A stretch of DNA of 64,000 bases from a virus. Shown here piece by piece: positions 40,913 to 45,905 of this stretch. Numbering within the stretch: position 1 is the stretch's first letter; the number at the start of each line of letters is the position of its first letter. The stretch lies in the UHGV virus genome UHGV-0086135; one strand, 5' to 3'. Made by a program: the position numbers and the translations under genes. The notes beneath the pieces are model-generated. The model was not told the origin of the DNA, made no database searches, and saw nothing but the letters and a program-made list of their open reading frames with translations.

Positions 40913-41249
40913 AGATGATTTAGATTTAGATCTAGAAATTATCGATGAATCCCCCTCTTCGGAGGGGGAAGAAGAAAGAAAAGAACGTCTTTTTAATGAA
41001 TCTCTTAAGATAATTAAATCTGCCATGGAAAATGTTATCCAGGAGATTGTCATTAAACTAGAAGACGGTTCTACACACATTGTGTATGTGACAAAATTAG
41101 ATTGGGTTGATGGAAAAGTCGTAATGGACTTTGCTGTTCTTGACCAAGAAAGAAAAGCTGAGTTAGCTCCTCATGTAGAAAAATGTATTACAATGCAACT
41201 ACAAGATGCATTTAATAAAAGGTCAAAGAAAAAATTTAAATTCTTTTAA
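40905..41249 (+). CDS. 40: head vertex assembly chaperone gp40
   Basis: ATG overlapping uvsX stop; position between uvsX and gene 41. Confidence 0.65.
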   Translation: MNKDDLDLDLEIIDESPSSEGEEERKERLFNESLKIIKSAMENVIQEIVIKLEDGSTHIVYVTKLDWVDGKVVMDFAVLDQERKAELAPHVEKCITMQLQDAFNKRSKKKFKFF

Positions 41250-41258
41250 GGAGTAAGT

Positions 41259-42686
41259 GTGGTAGAAATTATTCTTTCTCATCTCATATTTGATCAAGCT
41301 TATTTTTCAAAAGTTTGGCCATATATGGATTCAGAATATTTTGAAAGTGGTCCAGCTAAAAATACATTCAAATTAATTAAATCTCATGTTAATGAATACC
41401 ATAGCGTTCCATCTATTAATGCGTTAAATGTTGCATTAGAAAATAGTTCATTTACTGAAACAGAATATTCTGGTGTAAAAACACTTATTTCGAAACTAGC
41501 CGATTCTCCAGAAGACCACAGCTGGTTAGTAAAAGAAACAGAAAAATATGTTCAGCAAAGGGCGATGTTTAATGCTACGTCTAAAATAATTGAAATTCAA
41601 ACTAATGCTGAGCTTCCTCCGGAAAAACGAAATAAGAAAATGCCAGATGTAGGTGCTATTCCTGACATCATGCGTCAAGCATTATCAATTTCATTTGATA
41701 GTTACGTTGGTCATGATTGGATGGATGACTACGAAGCACGTTGGCTATCTTATATGAATAAAGCTCGTAAGGTTCCATTTAAACTCAAAATTCTAAATAA
41801 AATTACTAAAGGCGGAGCTGAAACTGGAACACTGAACGTTTTAATGGCTGGTGTTAACGTTGGTAAGTCATTAGGATTGTGTTCATTGGCAGCAGATTAT
41901 TTGCAGCTCGGACATAATGTTCTTTACATTTCCATGGAAATGGCAGAAGAAGTCTGTGCTAAGCGTATTGATGCTAATATGCTTGATGTTTCTCTTGATG
42001 ACATTGATGATGGGCATATTTCTTACGCTGAGTATAAAGGAAAAATGGAAAAATGGCGTGAGAAATCTACTCTCGGTCGTTTAATCGTTAAACAGTATCC
42101 TACTGGTGGAGCAGACGCTAATACATTCAGGTCTCTCTTGAATGAATTGAAGCTCAAGAAGAATTTTGTTCCAACAATCATTATTGTTGACTATCTGGGT
42201 ATTTGTAAATCTTGCCGCATTAGAGTTTATTCAGAAAATAGTTACACAACTGTTAAAGCTATCGCAGAGGAATTGCGTGCTCTTGCTGTTGAAACTGAAA
42301 CTGTTCTTTGGACTGCAGCACAGGTTGGTAAACAAGCTTGGGATTCTTCTGATGTTAACATGAGCGATATCGCAGAATCTGCCGGTCTTCCAGCAACAGC
42401 CGATTTTATGCTTGCTGTCATTGAAACCGAGGAGTTAGCAGCTGCTGAACAACAACTTATTAAGCAAATCAAATCACGATACGGTGATAAGAATAAATGG
42501 AATAAGTTTTTGATGGGTGTTCAAAAAGGAAATCAGAAATGGGTAGAAATTGAACAAGATTCTACTCCAACTGAAGTGAACGAAGTAGCAGGTTCACAGC
42601 AGATTCAGGCTGAACAGAATCGCTATCAAAGAAACGAATCTGCTCGAGCCCAGTTAGATGCTTTGGCAAATGAATTAAAATTTTAG
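41259..42686 (+). CDS. 41: replicative DNA helicase gp41 (DnaB-like)
   Basis: 475 aa, GTG start MVEIILSHLIF; Walker A GVNVGKS. Confidence 0.95.
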   Translation: MVEIILSHLIFDQAYFSKVWPYMDSEYFESGPAKNTFKLIKSHVNEYHSVPSINALNVALENSSFTETEYSGVKTLISKLADSPEDHSWLVKETEKYVQQRAMFNATSKIIEIQTNAELPPEKRNKKMPDVGAIPDIMRQALSISFDSYVGHDWMDDYEARWLSYMNKARKVPFKLKILNKITKGGAETGTLNVLMAGVNVGKSLGLCSLAADYLQLGHNVLYISMEMAEEVCAKRIDANMLDVSLDDIDDGHISYAEYKGKMEKWREKSTLGRLIVKQYPTGGADANTFRSLLNELKLKKNFVPTIIIVDYLGICKSCRIRVYSENSYTTVKAIAEELRALAVETETVLWTAAQVGKQAWDSSDVNMSDIAESAGLPATADFMLAVIETEELAAAEQQLIKQIKSRYGDKNKWNKFLMGVQKGNQKWVEIEQDSTPTEVNEVAGSQQIQAEQNRYQRNESARAQLDALANELKF

Positions 42687-42715
42687 TTTACAAGCTGACA
42701 AGACTATGGTATAGT
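42686..42715 (+). promoter_or_regulatory. T4-type early promoter
   Basis: GTTTAC 42686-42691, TATAGT 42710-42715. Confidence 0.55.
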
Positions 42716-42744
42716 AGTCTTGTTGGTTAAATGAGGAAATCTAA

Positions 42745-42939
42745 ATGGAAGAGTTTGCTAAAGTAGTTTTTATTGGTTGGTTTGAAAATGGTAGTATGTT
42801 TACCAAAGAAATCCGCATGGATATAACAGACAAAGAGCATATCATGTGGGCTACCATGCAGTTTGCTGAAATTAATAAAGCATTAGTTAAAGCATTTGTT
42901 AATGACGAGAAAGTTTTCGAAGCTGATTTCAGAGGATAA
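42745..42939 (+). CDS. dmd: Dmd-like antitoxin (61.5 position)
   Basis: 64 aa ORF immediately downstream of gene 41, as dmd is in T4. Confidence 0.5.
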   Translation: MEEFAKVVFIGWFENGSMFTKEIRMDITDKEHIMWATMQFAEINKALVKAFVNDEKVFEADFRG

Positions 42940-42940
42940 T

Positions 42941-43198
42941 ATGCATATTGTTTTATTTAAACCTACTCCGTATAATGTCAGGAAAAATACTCAATTCAAA
43001 GCACTTATTGCAGATACGTGGGAATTGGTATTAGATATTCCAGCAGAAGAAAGTCCTCCATTTGGTCGAGTGGAATTTATTAAGTTTGCTGTGCGCCCTA
43101 CGAAGCGACAGATTCGTCAATGCAAAAGATACTTTCGTAAAATCGTCAAGTTAGAGAAACAGTTTGTAACATGTGATTATGCAGAAGTTTTAAAATAG
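42941..43198 (+). CDS. hypothetical basic protein, 85 aa (61.4 position)
   Basis: ATG 42941 with AGAGGA SD. Confidence 0.45.
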   Translation: MHIVLFKPTPYNVRKNTQFKALIADTWELVLDIPAEESPPFGRVEFIKFAVRPTKRQIRQCKRYFRKIVKLEKQFVTCDYAEVLK

Positions 43199-43200
43199 CT

Positions 43201-43230
43201 GTTTACTTTTATTAGAAATTGAGATACTAT
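43201..43230 (+). promoter_or_regulatory. T4-type early promoter
   Basis: GTTTAC 43201-43206, TACTAT 43225-43230. Confidence 0.55.
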
Positions 43231-43258
43231 ATAAACATAAACTACTGAGGAGATTATC

Positions 43259-43552
43259 ATGAAAAAATTTATCTTTGCTACAATTTTTGCTTTATCTTCT
43301 TGTGCTGCTCAGCCTGCTATGGCGGGTTATGACAAAGATTTGTGTGAATGGTCTATGACTGCAGATCAGACTGAGGTTGAAACTCAAATTGAAGCAGATA
43401 TTATGAATATCGTTGAGCGTGATCGTCCTGAAATGAAAGCTGAAGTGCAAAAACAGCTTAAGTCTGGCGGTGTAATGCAGTATAATTATGTTCTGTATTG
43501 CGATAAAAACTTTAATAATAAAAATATCATCGCTGAAGTGGTAGGTGAGTAA
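43259..43552 (+). CDS. sp: Spackle periplasmic protein
   Basis: 97 aa with signal peptide; conserved position. Confidence 0.7.
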   Translation: MKKFIFATIFALSSCAAQPAMAGYDKDLCEWSMTADQTEVETQIEADIMNIVERDRPEMKAEVQKQLKSGGVMQYNYVLYCDKNFNNKNIIAEVVGE

Positions 43553-43564
43553 TTAGAGGTTAGT

Positions 43565-43921
43565 ATGTATAGTTCTGAATTTTCATATTTAAAAATGGAA
43601 AAAATTTCATACGATTTTATAGATGAAAAGGTTTATTACAGTTTCCATGAACCACGTTTTAATAGTGAAGTTGGGTTTATTGTAGTAAAAGACAATTTCA
43701 TTTTAAAAATATATTCGGCATTAAAGGATTTTCACTACGAAAATATTAACCTAAAATTTGATAAAGAAAATGTTCGTAATTGCGCAGTAACAATTACAGG
43801 AAATAAAGGTACATGCGTTATGCTATCTGATGAAATTAATGATTTGTTAAATGATGTAGAAAAGGTTGCTATTCCATCTATTGATGACCAAATTTTTAAT
43901 GCTTTTATGAATAGAGGTTAA
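43565..43921 (+). CDS. hypothetical protein, 118 aa (61.2 position)
   Basis: SD-preceded ORF. Confidence 0.5.
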   Translation: MYSSEFSYLKMEKISYDFIDEKVYYSFHEPRFNSEVGFIVVKDNFILKIYSALKDFHYENINLKFDKENVRNCAVTITGNKGTCVMLSDEINDLLNDVEKVAIPSIDDQIFNAFMNRG

Positions 43922-43922
43922 T

Positions 43923-44087
43923 ATGAAAACATATAAAGAATTTATTAAAGAAGATATGGTAGCTGGAGACTCAGGCGGTAATCCTGAAAATATCTCCACT
44001 GGAACAACGTCAGGCGCTGTAGTAAATAAAGGTCCTGAACAGATTCCTAAAAAGAAAAAAGAGGAATCTAAAGAAAAAGAAGAGTAA
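43923..44087 (+). CDS. hypothetical small protein, 54 aa (61.1 position)
   Basis: ATG 43923; Gly/Lys-rich; not in ORF track. Confidence 0.35.
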   Translation: MKTYKEFIKEDMVAGDSGGNPENISTGTTSGAVVNKGPEQIPKKKKEESKEKEE

Positions 44088-44089
44088 AA

Positions 44090-45118
44090 ATGTCATCAAT
44101 ACCTTGGATTGATAATGAGTTTGCATACCGCGCATTAGCTCATTTACCTAAATTCACACAAGTAAATAATAGTTCAACTTTTAAATTGCGGTTTAGATGC
44201 CCTGTTTGTGGAGATTCAAAAACCGACCAAAATAAAGCCCGTGGATGGTATTATGGTGATAATAATGAAGGAAATATTCATTGTTATAACTGCAACTATC
44301 ATGCACCAATCGGAATATATTTAAAGGAGTTTGAACCTGATTTATATCGTGAGTATATCTTTGAAATAAGAAAAGAAAAAGGTAAAAGTCGTCCAGTAGA
44401 AAAGCCTAAAGAACTTCCTAAACAACCTGAGAAGAAAATAATTAAATCTCTTCCGTCATGTATTAGATTAGATAAACTGGCGGAAGACCATCCAATTATA
44501 AAATATGTAAAAGCTCGTTGTATTCCAAAGGATAAATGGAAATATCTTTGGTTTACAACCGAATGGCCTAAATTAGTTAATAGCATAGCACCAGGAACAT
44601 ATAAAAAGGAAATACCTGAGCCTCGTCTTGTTATTCCAATTTATAATGCTAATGGAAAAGCTGAGTCTTTTCAAGGACGTGCATTAAAGAAAGATGCTCC
44701 TCAAAAATATATCACCATCAAAGCTTATCCTGAGGCAACAAAAATTTATGGAGTTGAACGAGTCAAAGATGGTGATGTATATGTTCTAGAAGGACCTATA
44801 GATTCACTTTTTATTGAAAATGGTATAGCTATTACGGGCGGTCAATTAGACCTAGAAATTGTTCCATTTAAAGATAGACGTGTGTGGGTTTTAGATAATG
44901 AACCTCGTCACCCTGACACTATTAAACGAATGACTAAATTAGTTGATGCAGGAGAAAGGGTTATGTTTTGGGATAAATCTCCCTGGAAATCAAAAGATGT
45001 TAATGATATGATTAGAAAGGAAGGTGCAACCCCTAAACAAATTATGGAATATATGAAAAATAATATTGCCCAAGGGTTGATGGCTAAAATGCGGCTATCT
45101 AAATACGCTAAGATTTAA
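44090..45118 (+). CDS. 61: DNA primase gp61
   Basis: 342 aa; N-terminal zinc ribbon CPVCGDS...CYNC; TOPRIM-like region. Confidence 0.9.
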   Translation: MSSIPWIDNEFAYRALAHLPKFTQVNNSSTFKLRFRCPVCGDSKTDQNKARGWYYGDNNEGNIHCYNCNYHAPIGIYLKEFEPDLYREYIFEIRKEKGKSRPVEKPKELPKQPEKKIIKSLPSCIRLDKLAEDHPIIKYVKARCIPKDKWKYLWFTTEWPKLVNSIAPGTYKKEIPEPRLVIPIYNANGKAESFQGRALKKDAPQKYITIKAYPEATKIYGVERVKDGDVYVLEGPIDSLFIENGIAITGGQLDLEIVPFKDRRVWVLDNEPRHPDTIKRMTKLVDAGERVMFWDKSPWKSKDVNDMIRKEGATPKQIMEYMKNNIAQGLMAKMRLSKYAKI

Positions 45119-45315
45119 ATTAACCCAACTAAAGCAAATGCTAAATCTACGAATGTATCAAGAGTAATTACTGGAATATTAACACCATGAGCAATAGCAA
45201 TTGGTGATAAAACAAAATTCCAGAGTAAAATTCCTACCATAGCAGAAATAGTAAAAGCTATACGTTTTTTATTACCTTTTATGGCATTAACAAGTGCCAT
45301 TAATTTTTGTACCAT
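45115..45315 (-). CDS. small membrane protein, 66 aa (only supported minus-strand gene)
   Basis: AAGGAGG SD 5 nt upstream of ATG on minus strand; two hydrophobic helices. Confidence 0.45.
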   Translation of the reverse strand: MVQKLMALVNAIKGNKKRIAFTISAMVGILLWNFVLSPIAIAHGVNIPVITLDTFVDLAFALVGLI

Positions 45316-45386
45316 ATATCCTCCTTATTGCTTTATATATTTATTGTATAATTAATCTACTAACCCATGAATTGAAAGGAAAAATA

Positions 45387-45905
45387 ATGGCATACTTTAA
45401 TGAATGTTCACAACTGATTGAAGGCGCTGATAAAGCTCAAAATGAATACTGGGATATTCTCGGTGATGAAAAAGACCCTCTGCAAGTTATGCTTGATATG
45501 CAGAAATCTCTACAGGTTCGTTTAGCTAAAGATAAACCTGAATATAACCGTCATCCTGATGATTTGGCTACTGCGGGTGAAGTTGTTGATTGGCTGCGTA
45601 ATCAGAAAGATTATATTGATGATGAATTCCGCGAACTACTGACTTCTCTTGGTGGTATGAGCAATGGTGAAAAAGATGCATCTGCTGTATGGAAGCCTTG
45701 GAAAGCTCAACATGGTGAACGACGTGAAACTTTAATTACTGATTTGTCTCCACAAGACCAGTTGGAAATTAAATTCGAAATGATTGATATTCTTCATTTC
45801 GTTCTAAACATGTTCCAAGGTCTCGGTCTTACGGCTGAAGAAATCTTTAAACTTTATTATCTGAAAAATGCTGAAAACTTCGCTCGTCAAGACCGAGGTT
45901 ATTAA
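45387..45905 (+). CDS. 56: dCTPase/dUTPase gp56
   Basis: 172 aa from MAYFNECSQLIEG; MazG-like; TGTATAAT promoter upstream. Confidence 0.85.
   Translation: MAYFNECSQLIEGADKAQNEYWDILGDEKDPLQVMLDMQKSLQVRLAKDKPEYNRHPDDLATAGEVVDWLRNQKDYIDDEFRELLTSLGGMSNGEKDASAVWKPWKAQHGERRETLITDLSPQDQLEIKFEMIDILHFVLNMFQGLGLTAEEIFKLYYLKNAENFARQDRGY

Follow-up and report, generated by a model that had tools for sequence, protein, structure and literature searches.

In phage T4, the region between the replicative helicase gene (41) and the primase gene (61) has been described as an "anti-TA island" (Srikant et al. 2022, eLife 11:e79549), and three of its small genes have published functions: Dmd inhibits RnlA and LsoA, the product of gene 61.4 (TifA) inhibits ToxN, and that of gene 61.2 (AdfA) inhibits DarT. 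The dmd–tifA pair is driven by an early promoter upstream of dmd, and a promoter downstream of tifA is mentioned as well (Srikant et al. 2022). Dmd binds RnlA/LsoA-type RNases in a groove that lies between their N-repeat and HEPN domains (Garcia-Rodriguez 2021). ToxN inhibition has been demonstrated for the TifA homologs of T4, T2, T6, and RB69 (Guegler 2023), and a His at position 164 of AdfA enables neutralization of DarT1 (Johannesman 2025). Spackle, encoded in the same region, mediates superinfection exclusion by inhibiting the tail lysozyme gp5 in the periplasm (Shi 2020). Phage T2 "naturally lacks an adfA homolog" according to the laboratory that described AdfA, and the DarTG1 counter-defense that T2 passed to RB69 in phage crosses was mapped to gene 30.3/AdfN (Johannesman 2025).

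The window analyzed here, a stretch of 64,000 nucleotides of the virus genome UHGV-0086135, comes from a Tequatrovirus, and its nearest phages are Tequatrovirus at ~96%–97% DNA identity. It carries the published anti-TA island, with the gene content seen in T2. The locus itself is already known, the region, the three functions, and the island idea all having been published. This copy is ordinary except for a rare version of Dmd that has been swapped in and for two small genes of unassigned role. We are confident, short of certainty, in reading it as a T-even early-gene block with the expression, mechanisms, and cassette exchange proposed below.

Genes and promoters of the island

Five small ORFs, all on the + strand, lie between gene 41 (41259–42686, + strand), whose product is identical to T4 gp41 at 473 of 475 residues (99%), and gene 61 (44090–45118, + strand), whose product is identical to T4 gp61 at 336 of 342 residues (98%). 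Just such a five-gene cluster between helicase and primase had been reported in an initial sequence-only reading of this DNA, and its descriptions of the products hold: the 85-residue product is basic (17 K+R), the 97-residue product has a signal peptide, and the 54-residue product is Gly/Lys-rich. Four of the five match Pfam above the curated cut-off, all five match PHROG families (E 1e-31 to 1e-73), their homologs are found by tblastn in 337 to 1,433 phage records depending on the gene, and the numerous Tequatrovirus records with matching DNA annotate the island stretch as coding genes, so these are more than chance ORFs. Each is preceded by a GAGG-type ribosome-binding site, and stop/start couplings of 1–2 nt are found at three junctions (dmd–tifA, ORF4–61.1, and 61.1–61, where ORF4 is the 118-codon gene). 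A search of NCBIfam returned no match for any of the five products, and a scan of 42400–44400 found no intrinsic terminators. The earlier reading had assigned its gene names by position. Sequence homology now backs the names Dmd, 61.4, Spackle, and 61.1, all four products aligning with their T4 counterparts, and the T4 functions that this reading gave for Dmd, 61.4, and 61.2 are the published ones; the 118-residue product, however, aligns with 61.2 only in part.

An early-promoter-like site upstream of dmd–tifA (TTTACA-17-TATAGT, 42687–42715, + strand) is the best sigma-70 match in the region, agreeing at 10 of 12 positions and carrying a TG extension, and the DNA there is ~97% identical to T4. 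A second site of this type, putative and read directly from the sequence, lies upstream of sp (TTTACT-17-TACTAT, 43202–43230, + strand); its score of 8 of 12 is under the threshold of the promoter scanner. Judging from these consensus matches and from the homology to T4, two early-type promoters would drive dmd–tifA and sp–ORF4–61.1, the latter possibly reaching into 61, and the products would be expected within minutes after infection.

The second gene, tifA (gene 61.4, 42941–43198, + strand), encodes a predicted ToxN inhibitor and RNA-binding protein of 85 residues, 84 of them identical to T4 gp61.4, that matches Pfam PF23945 (DUF7279; 72.7 bits, cut-off 24.5, E 2e-20); a PDB sequence search with it gave no match. 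The length given in the sequence-only reading was right, but the listed start was not: a mechanical list has a TTG at 42896, and it is the ATG at 42941 that gives 85 residues. The gene is translationally coupled to dmd through TAA-T-ATG. Its product has K55, R56, and R59, the positions mutated in RB69 TifA K55A R56A R59A (Guegler et al. 2023), and at residue 41, in the predicted ToxN interface, it shares with T4 the Phe of the weak-inhibitor state (F41). Because F41 is kept, this tifA in single copy should inhibit ToxN only weakly, as that of wild-type T4 does. Together with RNA, TifA would bind ToxN and trap it away from phage transcripts, as has been shown for T4 TifA.

The third gene, sp (gene 61.3, 43259–43552, + strand), encodes Spackle, whose 97 residues include 95 identical to T4 and begin with a signal peptide (residues 1–22, 43259–43324, + strand); the mature chain, 7cn6, begins at residue 23. 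Matches to Pfam PF25676 (152 bits, cut-off 27, E 7e-45, positions 1–96 of 96) and to PDB 6x6o (E 2e-61) are strong. The protein would be exported to the periplasm and stop the gp5 lysozyme when other T-even phages superinfect, as shown for its T4 counterpart. The sequence-only reading had placed all five genes, sp included, in positions of known T4 anti-defense factors; its role is instead superinfection exclusion by gp5 lysozyme inhibition (Shi 2020).

This different, demonstrated role of Spackle speaks against the view that all five genes serve counter-defense and that the locus is a pure anti-defense island, a view that draws on the proposal of the remaining genes of the region as attractive anti-toxin candidates (Srikant et al. 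2022). The distribution of gp61.1 argues the same way: its gene is conserved beside that of the primase in phages ranging from T4 to KVP40 and those of Acinetobacter, as a core accessory gene would be and a fast-turnover anti-defense gene would not. A pure anti-defense island is, in our estimation, quite improbable.

The dmd allele and its cassette

The first gene after gene 41 is dmd (42745–42939, + strand), which shares an operon with tifA behind the early-promoter-like site and encodes a rare, 64-residue allele of the RnlA/LsoA antitoxin. The product matches Pfam PF17587, discriminator of mRNA degradation (88.1 bits, cut-off 27, E 4.8e-25, residues 3–64 on model positions 2–60 of 60), phrog_2102 (E 1.3e-31), and the solved structures of RB69 Dmd (PDB 5i8j, E 1.7e-23) and of T4 Dmd bound to LsoA (5hy3_B, E 2.2e-20), and it keeps the conserved core KV.F.GWF...MFTK.I...W.T.Q.AE.N.ALVKAF..D.KV.E.D.RG. 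It is 96.9% identical to Dmd of the Mosigvirus phage moskry and 63% identical (BLASTP) to T4 Dmd, from which it differs at 37% of aligned positions and by a loop (residues 24–33) that is three residues longer. The allele is found at 90% identity or more in only four of 798 phage records. With only 63% identity to T4 Dmd, its toxin specificity is not to be assumed. By analogy with T4 Dmd, for which this has been shown, the protein may fit the groove of RnlA/LsoA-type RNases and replace the labile antitoxin.

DNA alignment delimits the exchanged segment to 42732–42943 (+ strand), within which the window tracks moskry and outside of which it tracks T4 and T2. The left junction is the ribosome-binding site TGAGGA (42732–42737), and the right junction is GAGGATAATATG (42932–42943), at the stop/start overlap. 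The identity profile against T4 falls at only two places, this cassette and ORF4. As judged from the alignments, dmd has been replaced by a Mosigvirus-type allele as an exact cassette whose ends are the ribosome-binding site and the overlap with tifA, a swap between phage genera at conserved junctions of roughly 6–12 nt.

Two small genes of unassigned role

The slot between sp and 61.1 holds ORF4 (43565–43921, + strand), a gene of the RB32ORF033c/T2 type whose 118-residue product resembles the C-terminal domain of AdfA and matches phrog_4122 over its full length (E 9e-73). It is 100% identical to its counterpart in pSs-1, 98% to that in RB68, and 94% to that in T2, and it is found in 337 phage records. 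The sequence-only reading had taken it for the counterpart of T4 61.2, an identification that we do not uphold: only the C-terminal half of AdfA is matched, the gene coexists with adfA in RB68, and it is carried by T2. The score against the Pfam family PF23813, AdfA or anti-DarT factor A (33.3 bits, cut-off 27, E 4e-8), to which the database already assigns close relatives of ORF4, comes from model positions 113–211 of 211 only. Likewise, hhalign relates ORF4 to the AdfA family (probability 98.2%, E 4.5e-14) only over AdfA residues 109–208, where the two are 35% identical, and finds no match to the AdfA N-half. At 118 residues, against ~208–216 for AdfA, ORF4 does not have the two-half architecture. 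When 1.84 billion representatives were searched exhaustively with HMMER for distant relatives, only three clusters (118–125 residues) came up, all of the same family; a word-indexed search for distant relatives returned close ones only, and a sequence search of the PDB gave only chance-level matches (E about 0.9).

Matches to adfA are found just upstream of the gene and at its end. The 12-nt spacer before it (TTAGAGGTTAGT, 43553–43564, + strand) matches AATAGAGGTTAAT-ATG, the adfA end with the start context, in RB68 and T4 and is apparently left over from the 3' end of adfA. The last codons of ORF4 (SIDDQIFNAFMNRG plus stop, 43877–43921, + strand) have almost the same DNA sequence as the adfA end in T4 and RB68; the core of this shared tail, DDQIFNAFM, is invariant in both families, the flanking S, I, N, and G are nearly so, and in RB68 the tail makes a ~45-nt direct repeat. 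The slot has three natural states: adfA only (T4), ORF4 only (T2 and the window), and both in tandem (RB68). Since ORF4 stands beside a full adfA in RB68, the two genes are paralogs and not alleles. ORF4 would be a single-domain paralog of the AdfA C-terminal half, and deletion of adfA from an RB68-like tandem arrangement would have given the state seen in the window.

It could be argued that ORF4 is nonetheless a working AdfA that neutralizes DarT1 by direct binding, which would make the anti-DarT label of 61.2 functionally right. The Pfam score above the gathering threshold, the hhalign probability of 98%, and the common C-terminal tail are all in keeping with this, and ORF4 spans the half of AdfA that contains specificity residue 164. 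At that very residue, however, the alignment sets Cys73, invariant in the ORF4 family, against the DarT1-neutralizing His of AdfA (164 in RB69 numbering, H165 in T4), so that a Cys stands where DarT1 neutralization needs a His; an H/R polymorphism at residue 164 is also seen in the AdfA alignment. The entire N-terminal half is missing, the presence of both genes in RB68 suggests a non-redundant role, and T2 carries ORF4 yet is treated as adfA-less, its DarTG1 counter-defense having been mapped to 30.3/AdfN. We regard a working AdfA as unlikely. Far harder to sustain is the notion of a functionless, decaying adfA remnant. Its appeal lies in the length of ORF4, about half that of adfA, and in the adfA 3'-end remnant directly upstream, which shows that a deletion occurred there; but ORF4 is intact in the 337 phage records, its relatives down to 41% identity share 34 invariant positions, its AlphaFold2 model is confident (pLDDT 83), and it has its own ribosome-binding site and start codon and is a separate gene beside an intact adfA in RB68. 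Such decay is hardly credible. As a single-domain paralog, ORF4 would most likely bind stoichiometrically to a toxin, DarT-like or of another kind, and its specificity would differ from that of T4 AdfA. The gene, which T2 and some 300 further phages carry, is a candidate for an inhibitor whose toxin specificity is new.

Within AdfA itself, a comparison of the N-half with the C-half by hhalign gives E 2.4e-4 at a probability of only 20%, and in the AdfA model (pLDDT 65) a five-strand-plus-helix pattern appears in both halves. This predicted likeness is suggestive only of an internal duplication.

Gene 61.1 (43923–44087, + strand) encodes 54 residues, 52 of which are identical to T4, and matches phrog_1823 (E 7e-34). 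With homologs in 1,433 phage records, including phages of Klebsiella, Acinetobacter, Aeromonas, and Vibrio, gp61.1 is by its sequence a conserved Straboviridae peptide. Its N-terminus, MKTYKEFIKE, is identical at eight of ten positions to the MKTYQEFIAE with which the T4 internal proteins IPII and IPIII begin, and it keeps both the targeting positions (Y4, F7) and the processing positions (I8, E10; (L/I)-x-E) of the capsid-targeting sequence (CTS). T4 gp61.1 and T4 IPI, for their part, both begin MKTFKEF. The start MKT[YF]xEF occurs once in the window, where 0.01 occurrences are expected by chance. Residues 2–38 also align with residues 57–93 of the major capsid protein gp23 (ungapped score 80, shuffles 28 ± 4; phmmer E 0.0085), and this gp23-like module is kept, together with the conserved Glu before it, in the 158–163-residue homologs of KVP40, Berthold, and Lw1. 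A Pfam scan of these long forms found no family. That gp61.1 resembles both the capsid-targeting sequence and the N-arm of gp23 had gone unnoticed, and the resemblance offers a testable lead.

One could suppose that gp61.1 copies the gp23 maturation-cleavage site and N-arm and has, in T-even phages, a CTS as well, that this CTS-like N-terminus takes it to the prohead, where the prohead protease gp21 would cut after Glu10, and that the product is then either packaged and injected along with the DNA, as the internal proteins are, or serves as a mimic or decoy of that part of gp23, drawing off a host factor or immune sensor that would recognize the gp23 N-terminal region beside the Gol peptide. 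The kept targeting and processing positions, the gp23 alignment far above its shuffles, the retention of the module with its Glu in the long homologs, and the rarity of the start motif all point this way. Against it, a search of the + strand over 41000–45200 turned up no TATAAATA late promoter, the long-form homologs have no CTS at the N-terminus, and no support for gp61.1 as a virion component was found in the literature or in virion proteomics. Co-variation offers no help, as residues 57–100 of gp23 are nearly identical in T4 and Acinetobacter phage Berthold and leave none to read between gp61.1 and gp23. Compared with IPI, IPII, and IPIII of T4, gp61.1 is only 54 residues long and lies in a replication gene cluster without a nearby late promoter. 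Both the targeting to the prohead and the imitation of gp23 thus appear doubtful to us.

Relation to T4, T2, RB68, and moskry

The island would seem to evolve through exact exchange of gene cassettes. The dmd swap and the adfA slot, whose three natural states are connected by simple deletions, make the locus an example of island evolution, and each of its parts can be set beside a described phage. The T4 island has the same flanks (41 and 61), gene order, and orientation as the window; its tifA, sp, and 61.1 are 96%–99% identical, and the promoter-like sites and the dmd–tifA coupling are the same. It differs in its dmd, a different allele of 60 residues against 64 (63% identity), and in having a 208-residue adfA where the window has the 118-residue paralog instead. 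T2 (PV958097) agrees with the window in all five genes and in their order, including the 118-residue gene (94%) and again without adfA, but its Dmd is the common T4-type form of 60 residues, whereas that of the window is the rare Mosigvirus-type form of 64. RB68 (NC_027979) shares the 118-residue gene (98%) and its neighbors with the window, and has in addition a 210-residue adfA directly upstream of that gene, which the window does not. The Mosigvirus relationship of the window Dmd, seen in moskry, extends to RB69 Dmd (PDB 5I8J), with which it has the C-terminal NDEKVFEADFRG in common. The moskry neighborhood is nevertheless different: additional genes separate 41 from dmd, genes of the imm type are present, and the TifA homolog has 70 residues; unlike moskry dmd, the dmd of the window sits in T4-type flanks.

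Gene order and expression signals between genes 41 and 61

On the plus strand of the window, uvsX, gene 40, gene 41 (41259-42686; product 99% identical to T4 gp41), five small ORFs and gene 61 (44090-45118; product 98% identical to T4 gp61) follow one another in this order. The small ORFs are dmd, tifA (61.4), sp (61.3), a 118-aa gene (ORF4) and 61.1, and they lie where the sequence-only reading had placed them; the one coordinate that changes belongs to the 85-aa ORF, which exists but starts at the ATG at 42941. The T4 functions given in that reading (Dmd acting on RnlA/LsoA, 61.4 and 61.2 as anti-defence factors) are correct and match published roles. For the most part its assignments of Dmd, TifA and Spackle stand, but that of the "61.2 position" is wrong in its details.

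Hundreds of Tequatrovirus genomes match the window DNA, the nearest being ~96–97% identical over 16 kb and none identical. Identity to T4 is ~97% overall, save for two gene-bounded patches at dmd (42745-42940) and ORF4 (43553-43880). A GAGG-type ribosome-binding site is present at each of the five small ORFs, and gaps of 1–2 nt separate dmd from tifA, ORF4 from 61.1 and 61.1 from 61. A strong sigma-70/T4-early-type promoter match (TTTACA-17-TATAGT, 42687-42715) lies 5' of dmd, and a weaker one, read directly from the sequence (TTTACT-17-TACTAT, 43202-43230), lies 5' of sp. These two candidate sites agree with the published T4 arrangement, in which one early promoter is found 5' of dmd and another 3' of tifA (Srikant 2022). 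Beyond gene 61 comes a 66-aa hydrophobic ORF of the RB32ORF030w type (45115-45315, minus strand), which T2 and RB68 have as well, and next to it the dCTPase gene 56 (45294-45905); the T4 gene just past 61 is dam, which is thus missing from that position in the window.

The second small ORF encodes TifA (84/85 identical to T4), with F41, K55, R56 and R59. Gene 61.4 was renamed tifA for its product, which inhibits ToxN by binding ToxN and RNA together (Srikant 2022; Guegler 2023); T4 TifA with F41 is a weak inhibitor (Guegler 2023), and because of this wild-type T4 must amplify the gene to escape toxIN. The third encodes Spackle (95/97 identical to T4; PDB 6X6O, E 2e-61; mature chain from residue 23), which blocks the gp5 lysozyme of the tail and confers superinfection exclusion (Shi 2020).

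A Mosigvirus-type dmd

The first small ORF is Dmd by Pfam (PF17587, 88 bits where 27 is the cut-off) and by its matches to solved Dmd structures (5I8J, E 1e-23; 5HY3_B, E 1e-20). Direct targets of Dmd are the HEPN RNases RnlA and LsoA, which it inhibits from a site between their N-repeat and HEPN domains (Srikant 2022; Garcia-Rodriguez 2021). Against T4/T2 Dmd the window protein shows 63% identity in BLASTP and about 65–67% when several sequences are aligned; the figure is about 65% for RB69 Dmd, as against 96.9% for that of Mosigvirus moskry. A Dmd match is present in 798 phage records, of which only 4 have an allele with identity of at least 90%. In a four-way DNA alignment the window tracks moskry across a segment that opens at the ribosome-binding site TGAGGA (42732-42737) and closes at the stop/start overlap GAGGATAATATG (42932-42943); on both sides it tracks T4/T2. 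The moskry-type cassette spans 42732-42943, aligned with 2480-2700 of the moskry locus (L003). By this alignment, dmd is an exact inter-genus cassette swap, of moskry-type origin, via short conserved junctions, the ribosome-binding site and the stop/start overlap.

Differences from T4 Dmd are scattered, densest in the loop at residues 24-33, which is three residues longer, and the conserved core is kept. This rare allele is a candidate RnlA-family inhibitor whose toxin range would not be predictable from T4 Dmd. The moskry island (L003 1753-4005) is larger: two additional ORFs separate gene 41 from dmd, the TifA homologue has 70 aa and a His at position 41, and a pair of superinfection-immunity genes of the imm type lies 5' of sp. 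The difference in layout shows that the block is plastic between genera.

The 118-aa gene and AdfA

T4 61.2 encodes AdfA, an inhibitor that binds DarT and requires His164 to neutralise DarT1 (Johannesman 2025). AdfA has 208 residues and ORF4 (43565-43921) has 118; the alignment of the two is confined to residues 109-208 of AdfA (35% identity), 14 of the identical residues forming the C-terminal tail SIDDQIFNAFMNRG. ORF4 exceeds the threshold of the Pfam AdfA model, limited to positions 113-211 of 211, and profile–profile comparison matches its family to the AdfA C-half (98% probability, E 4.5e-14) and finds no match to the N-half. It is not the T4 61.2 counterpart proposed earlier. In RB68 it sits in tandem with adfA (L006 1867-2857), in the order sp, adfA, 118-aa gene, 61.1, and this tandem shows the two genes to be paralogues. 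ORF4 occurs in 337 phage records, including pSs-1 (100%), T2 (94%), RB27 and RB33; the long AdfA N-half occurs in 487.

The two RB68 genes share the same ~45-nt terminal tail, SIDDQIFNAFMN(K/R)G; in the window this tail lies at 43877-43921 (plus strand), nearly identical in DNA to the end of adfA, and 12 nt left over from the adfA 3' end (43553-43564) stand between sp and ORF4. This remnant suggests that the window arrangement arose when adfA was deleted in an RB68-like ancestor; T4 looks as if it had reciprocally lost the short gene, between the two ~45-nt tail repeats. By tail and remnant, the state with adfA alone (T4), the state with the short gene alone (T2 and the window) and the state with both (RB68) are linked through simple deletions.

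The ORF4 family has an invariant Cys at the position aligned to the DarT1-neutralising His, and in phage crosses DarTG1 counter-defence passed from T2 and T4 to RB69 mapped to gene 30.3 (AdfN) (Johannesman 2025). We consider it improbable that ORF4 is an anti-DarT1 factor as such. That a half-length gene is a dead remnant appears far more improbable still, as a confident AlphaFold2 model (pLDDT 83) has five strands then three helices; a search for structural neighbours of the model gave no informative one. Most likely ORF4 would be a small protein that binds a toxin stoichiometrically in the manner of AdfA, its specificity being other than that of AdfA. The weaker AdfA model (P0008, pLDDT 65) has the same strand–helix pattern, occurring twice, and its halves match weakly as profiles (hhalign E 2.4e-4, probability 20%); this weak match and low-confidence model are no more than suggestive that AdfA arose when an ORF4-like domain of five strands plus helix was duplicated in tandem.

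gp61.1 and the island among T-even phages

The product of 61.1 (43923-44087; 52/54 identical to T4), on whose function the sequence-only reading was silent, differs in behaviour from its four neighbours. Matches to it come from 1433 phage records throughout Straboviridae, among them phages that infect Klebsiella, Acinetobacter, Aeromonas and Vibrio (KVP40). Homologues of 158–163 aa (at L008 1183-1659, L009 1165-1641 and L011 1174-1665) occur in KVP40, the Acinetobacter phage Berthold and Lw1; in the first two they lie directly 5' of the primase gene, and in Lw1 one small ORF intervenes. The 54-aa T4-type protein corresponds to their conserved C-terminal module, E-(D/E)-MVAGD-x-GGN-x-x-NIA-x-GTT-x-GAV-x-N-x-GP, to which a basic tail is added. 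The module resembles gp23 57-93, a stretch with the gp21 cleavage site (LTE|AEIGGD) and the N-terminal arm of mature gp23, the likeness covering gp61.1 residues 2-38 (phmmer E 0.0085 against PDB; ungapped score with T4 gp23 80, against 28 ± 4 and a maximum of 46 in 300 shuffles). The gp23 stretch presumably stops just short of the Gol peptide.

Residues 1-10, MKTYKEFIKE, are 8/10 identical to the capsid-targeting sequence of IPII/IPIII, MKTYQEFIAE, and keep the positions reported important for targeting (4, 7) and processing (8, 10); MKTFKEF is common to IPI and T4 gp61.1. The start motif occurs once in the window, against 0.01 expected by chance. These likenesses make a packaging role a possible lead, not a conclusion. 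Against it, no late-promoter TATAAATA was found near 61.1, the long forms have no N-terminal targeting sequence, gp23 is too conserved to permit a co-variation test, and we found no literature on gp61.1 nor any published work on either likeness.

The locus itself is already known: Srikant et al. explicitly named the stretch a possible "anti-TA island". It is this known T-even island in a T2-like configuration; its dmd cassette is of the rare Mosigvirus type, and two of its small genes have putative roles only.
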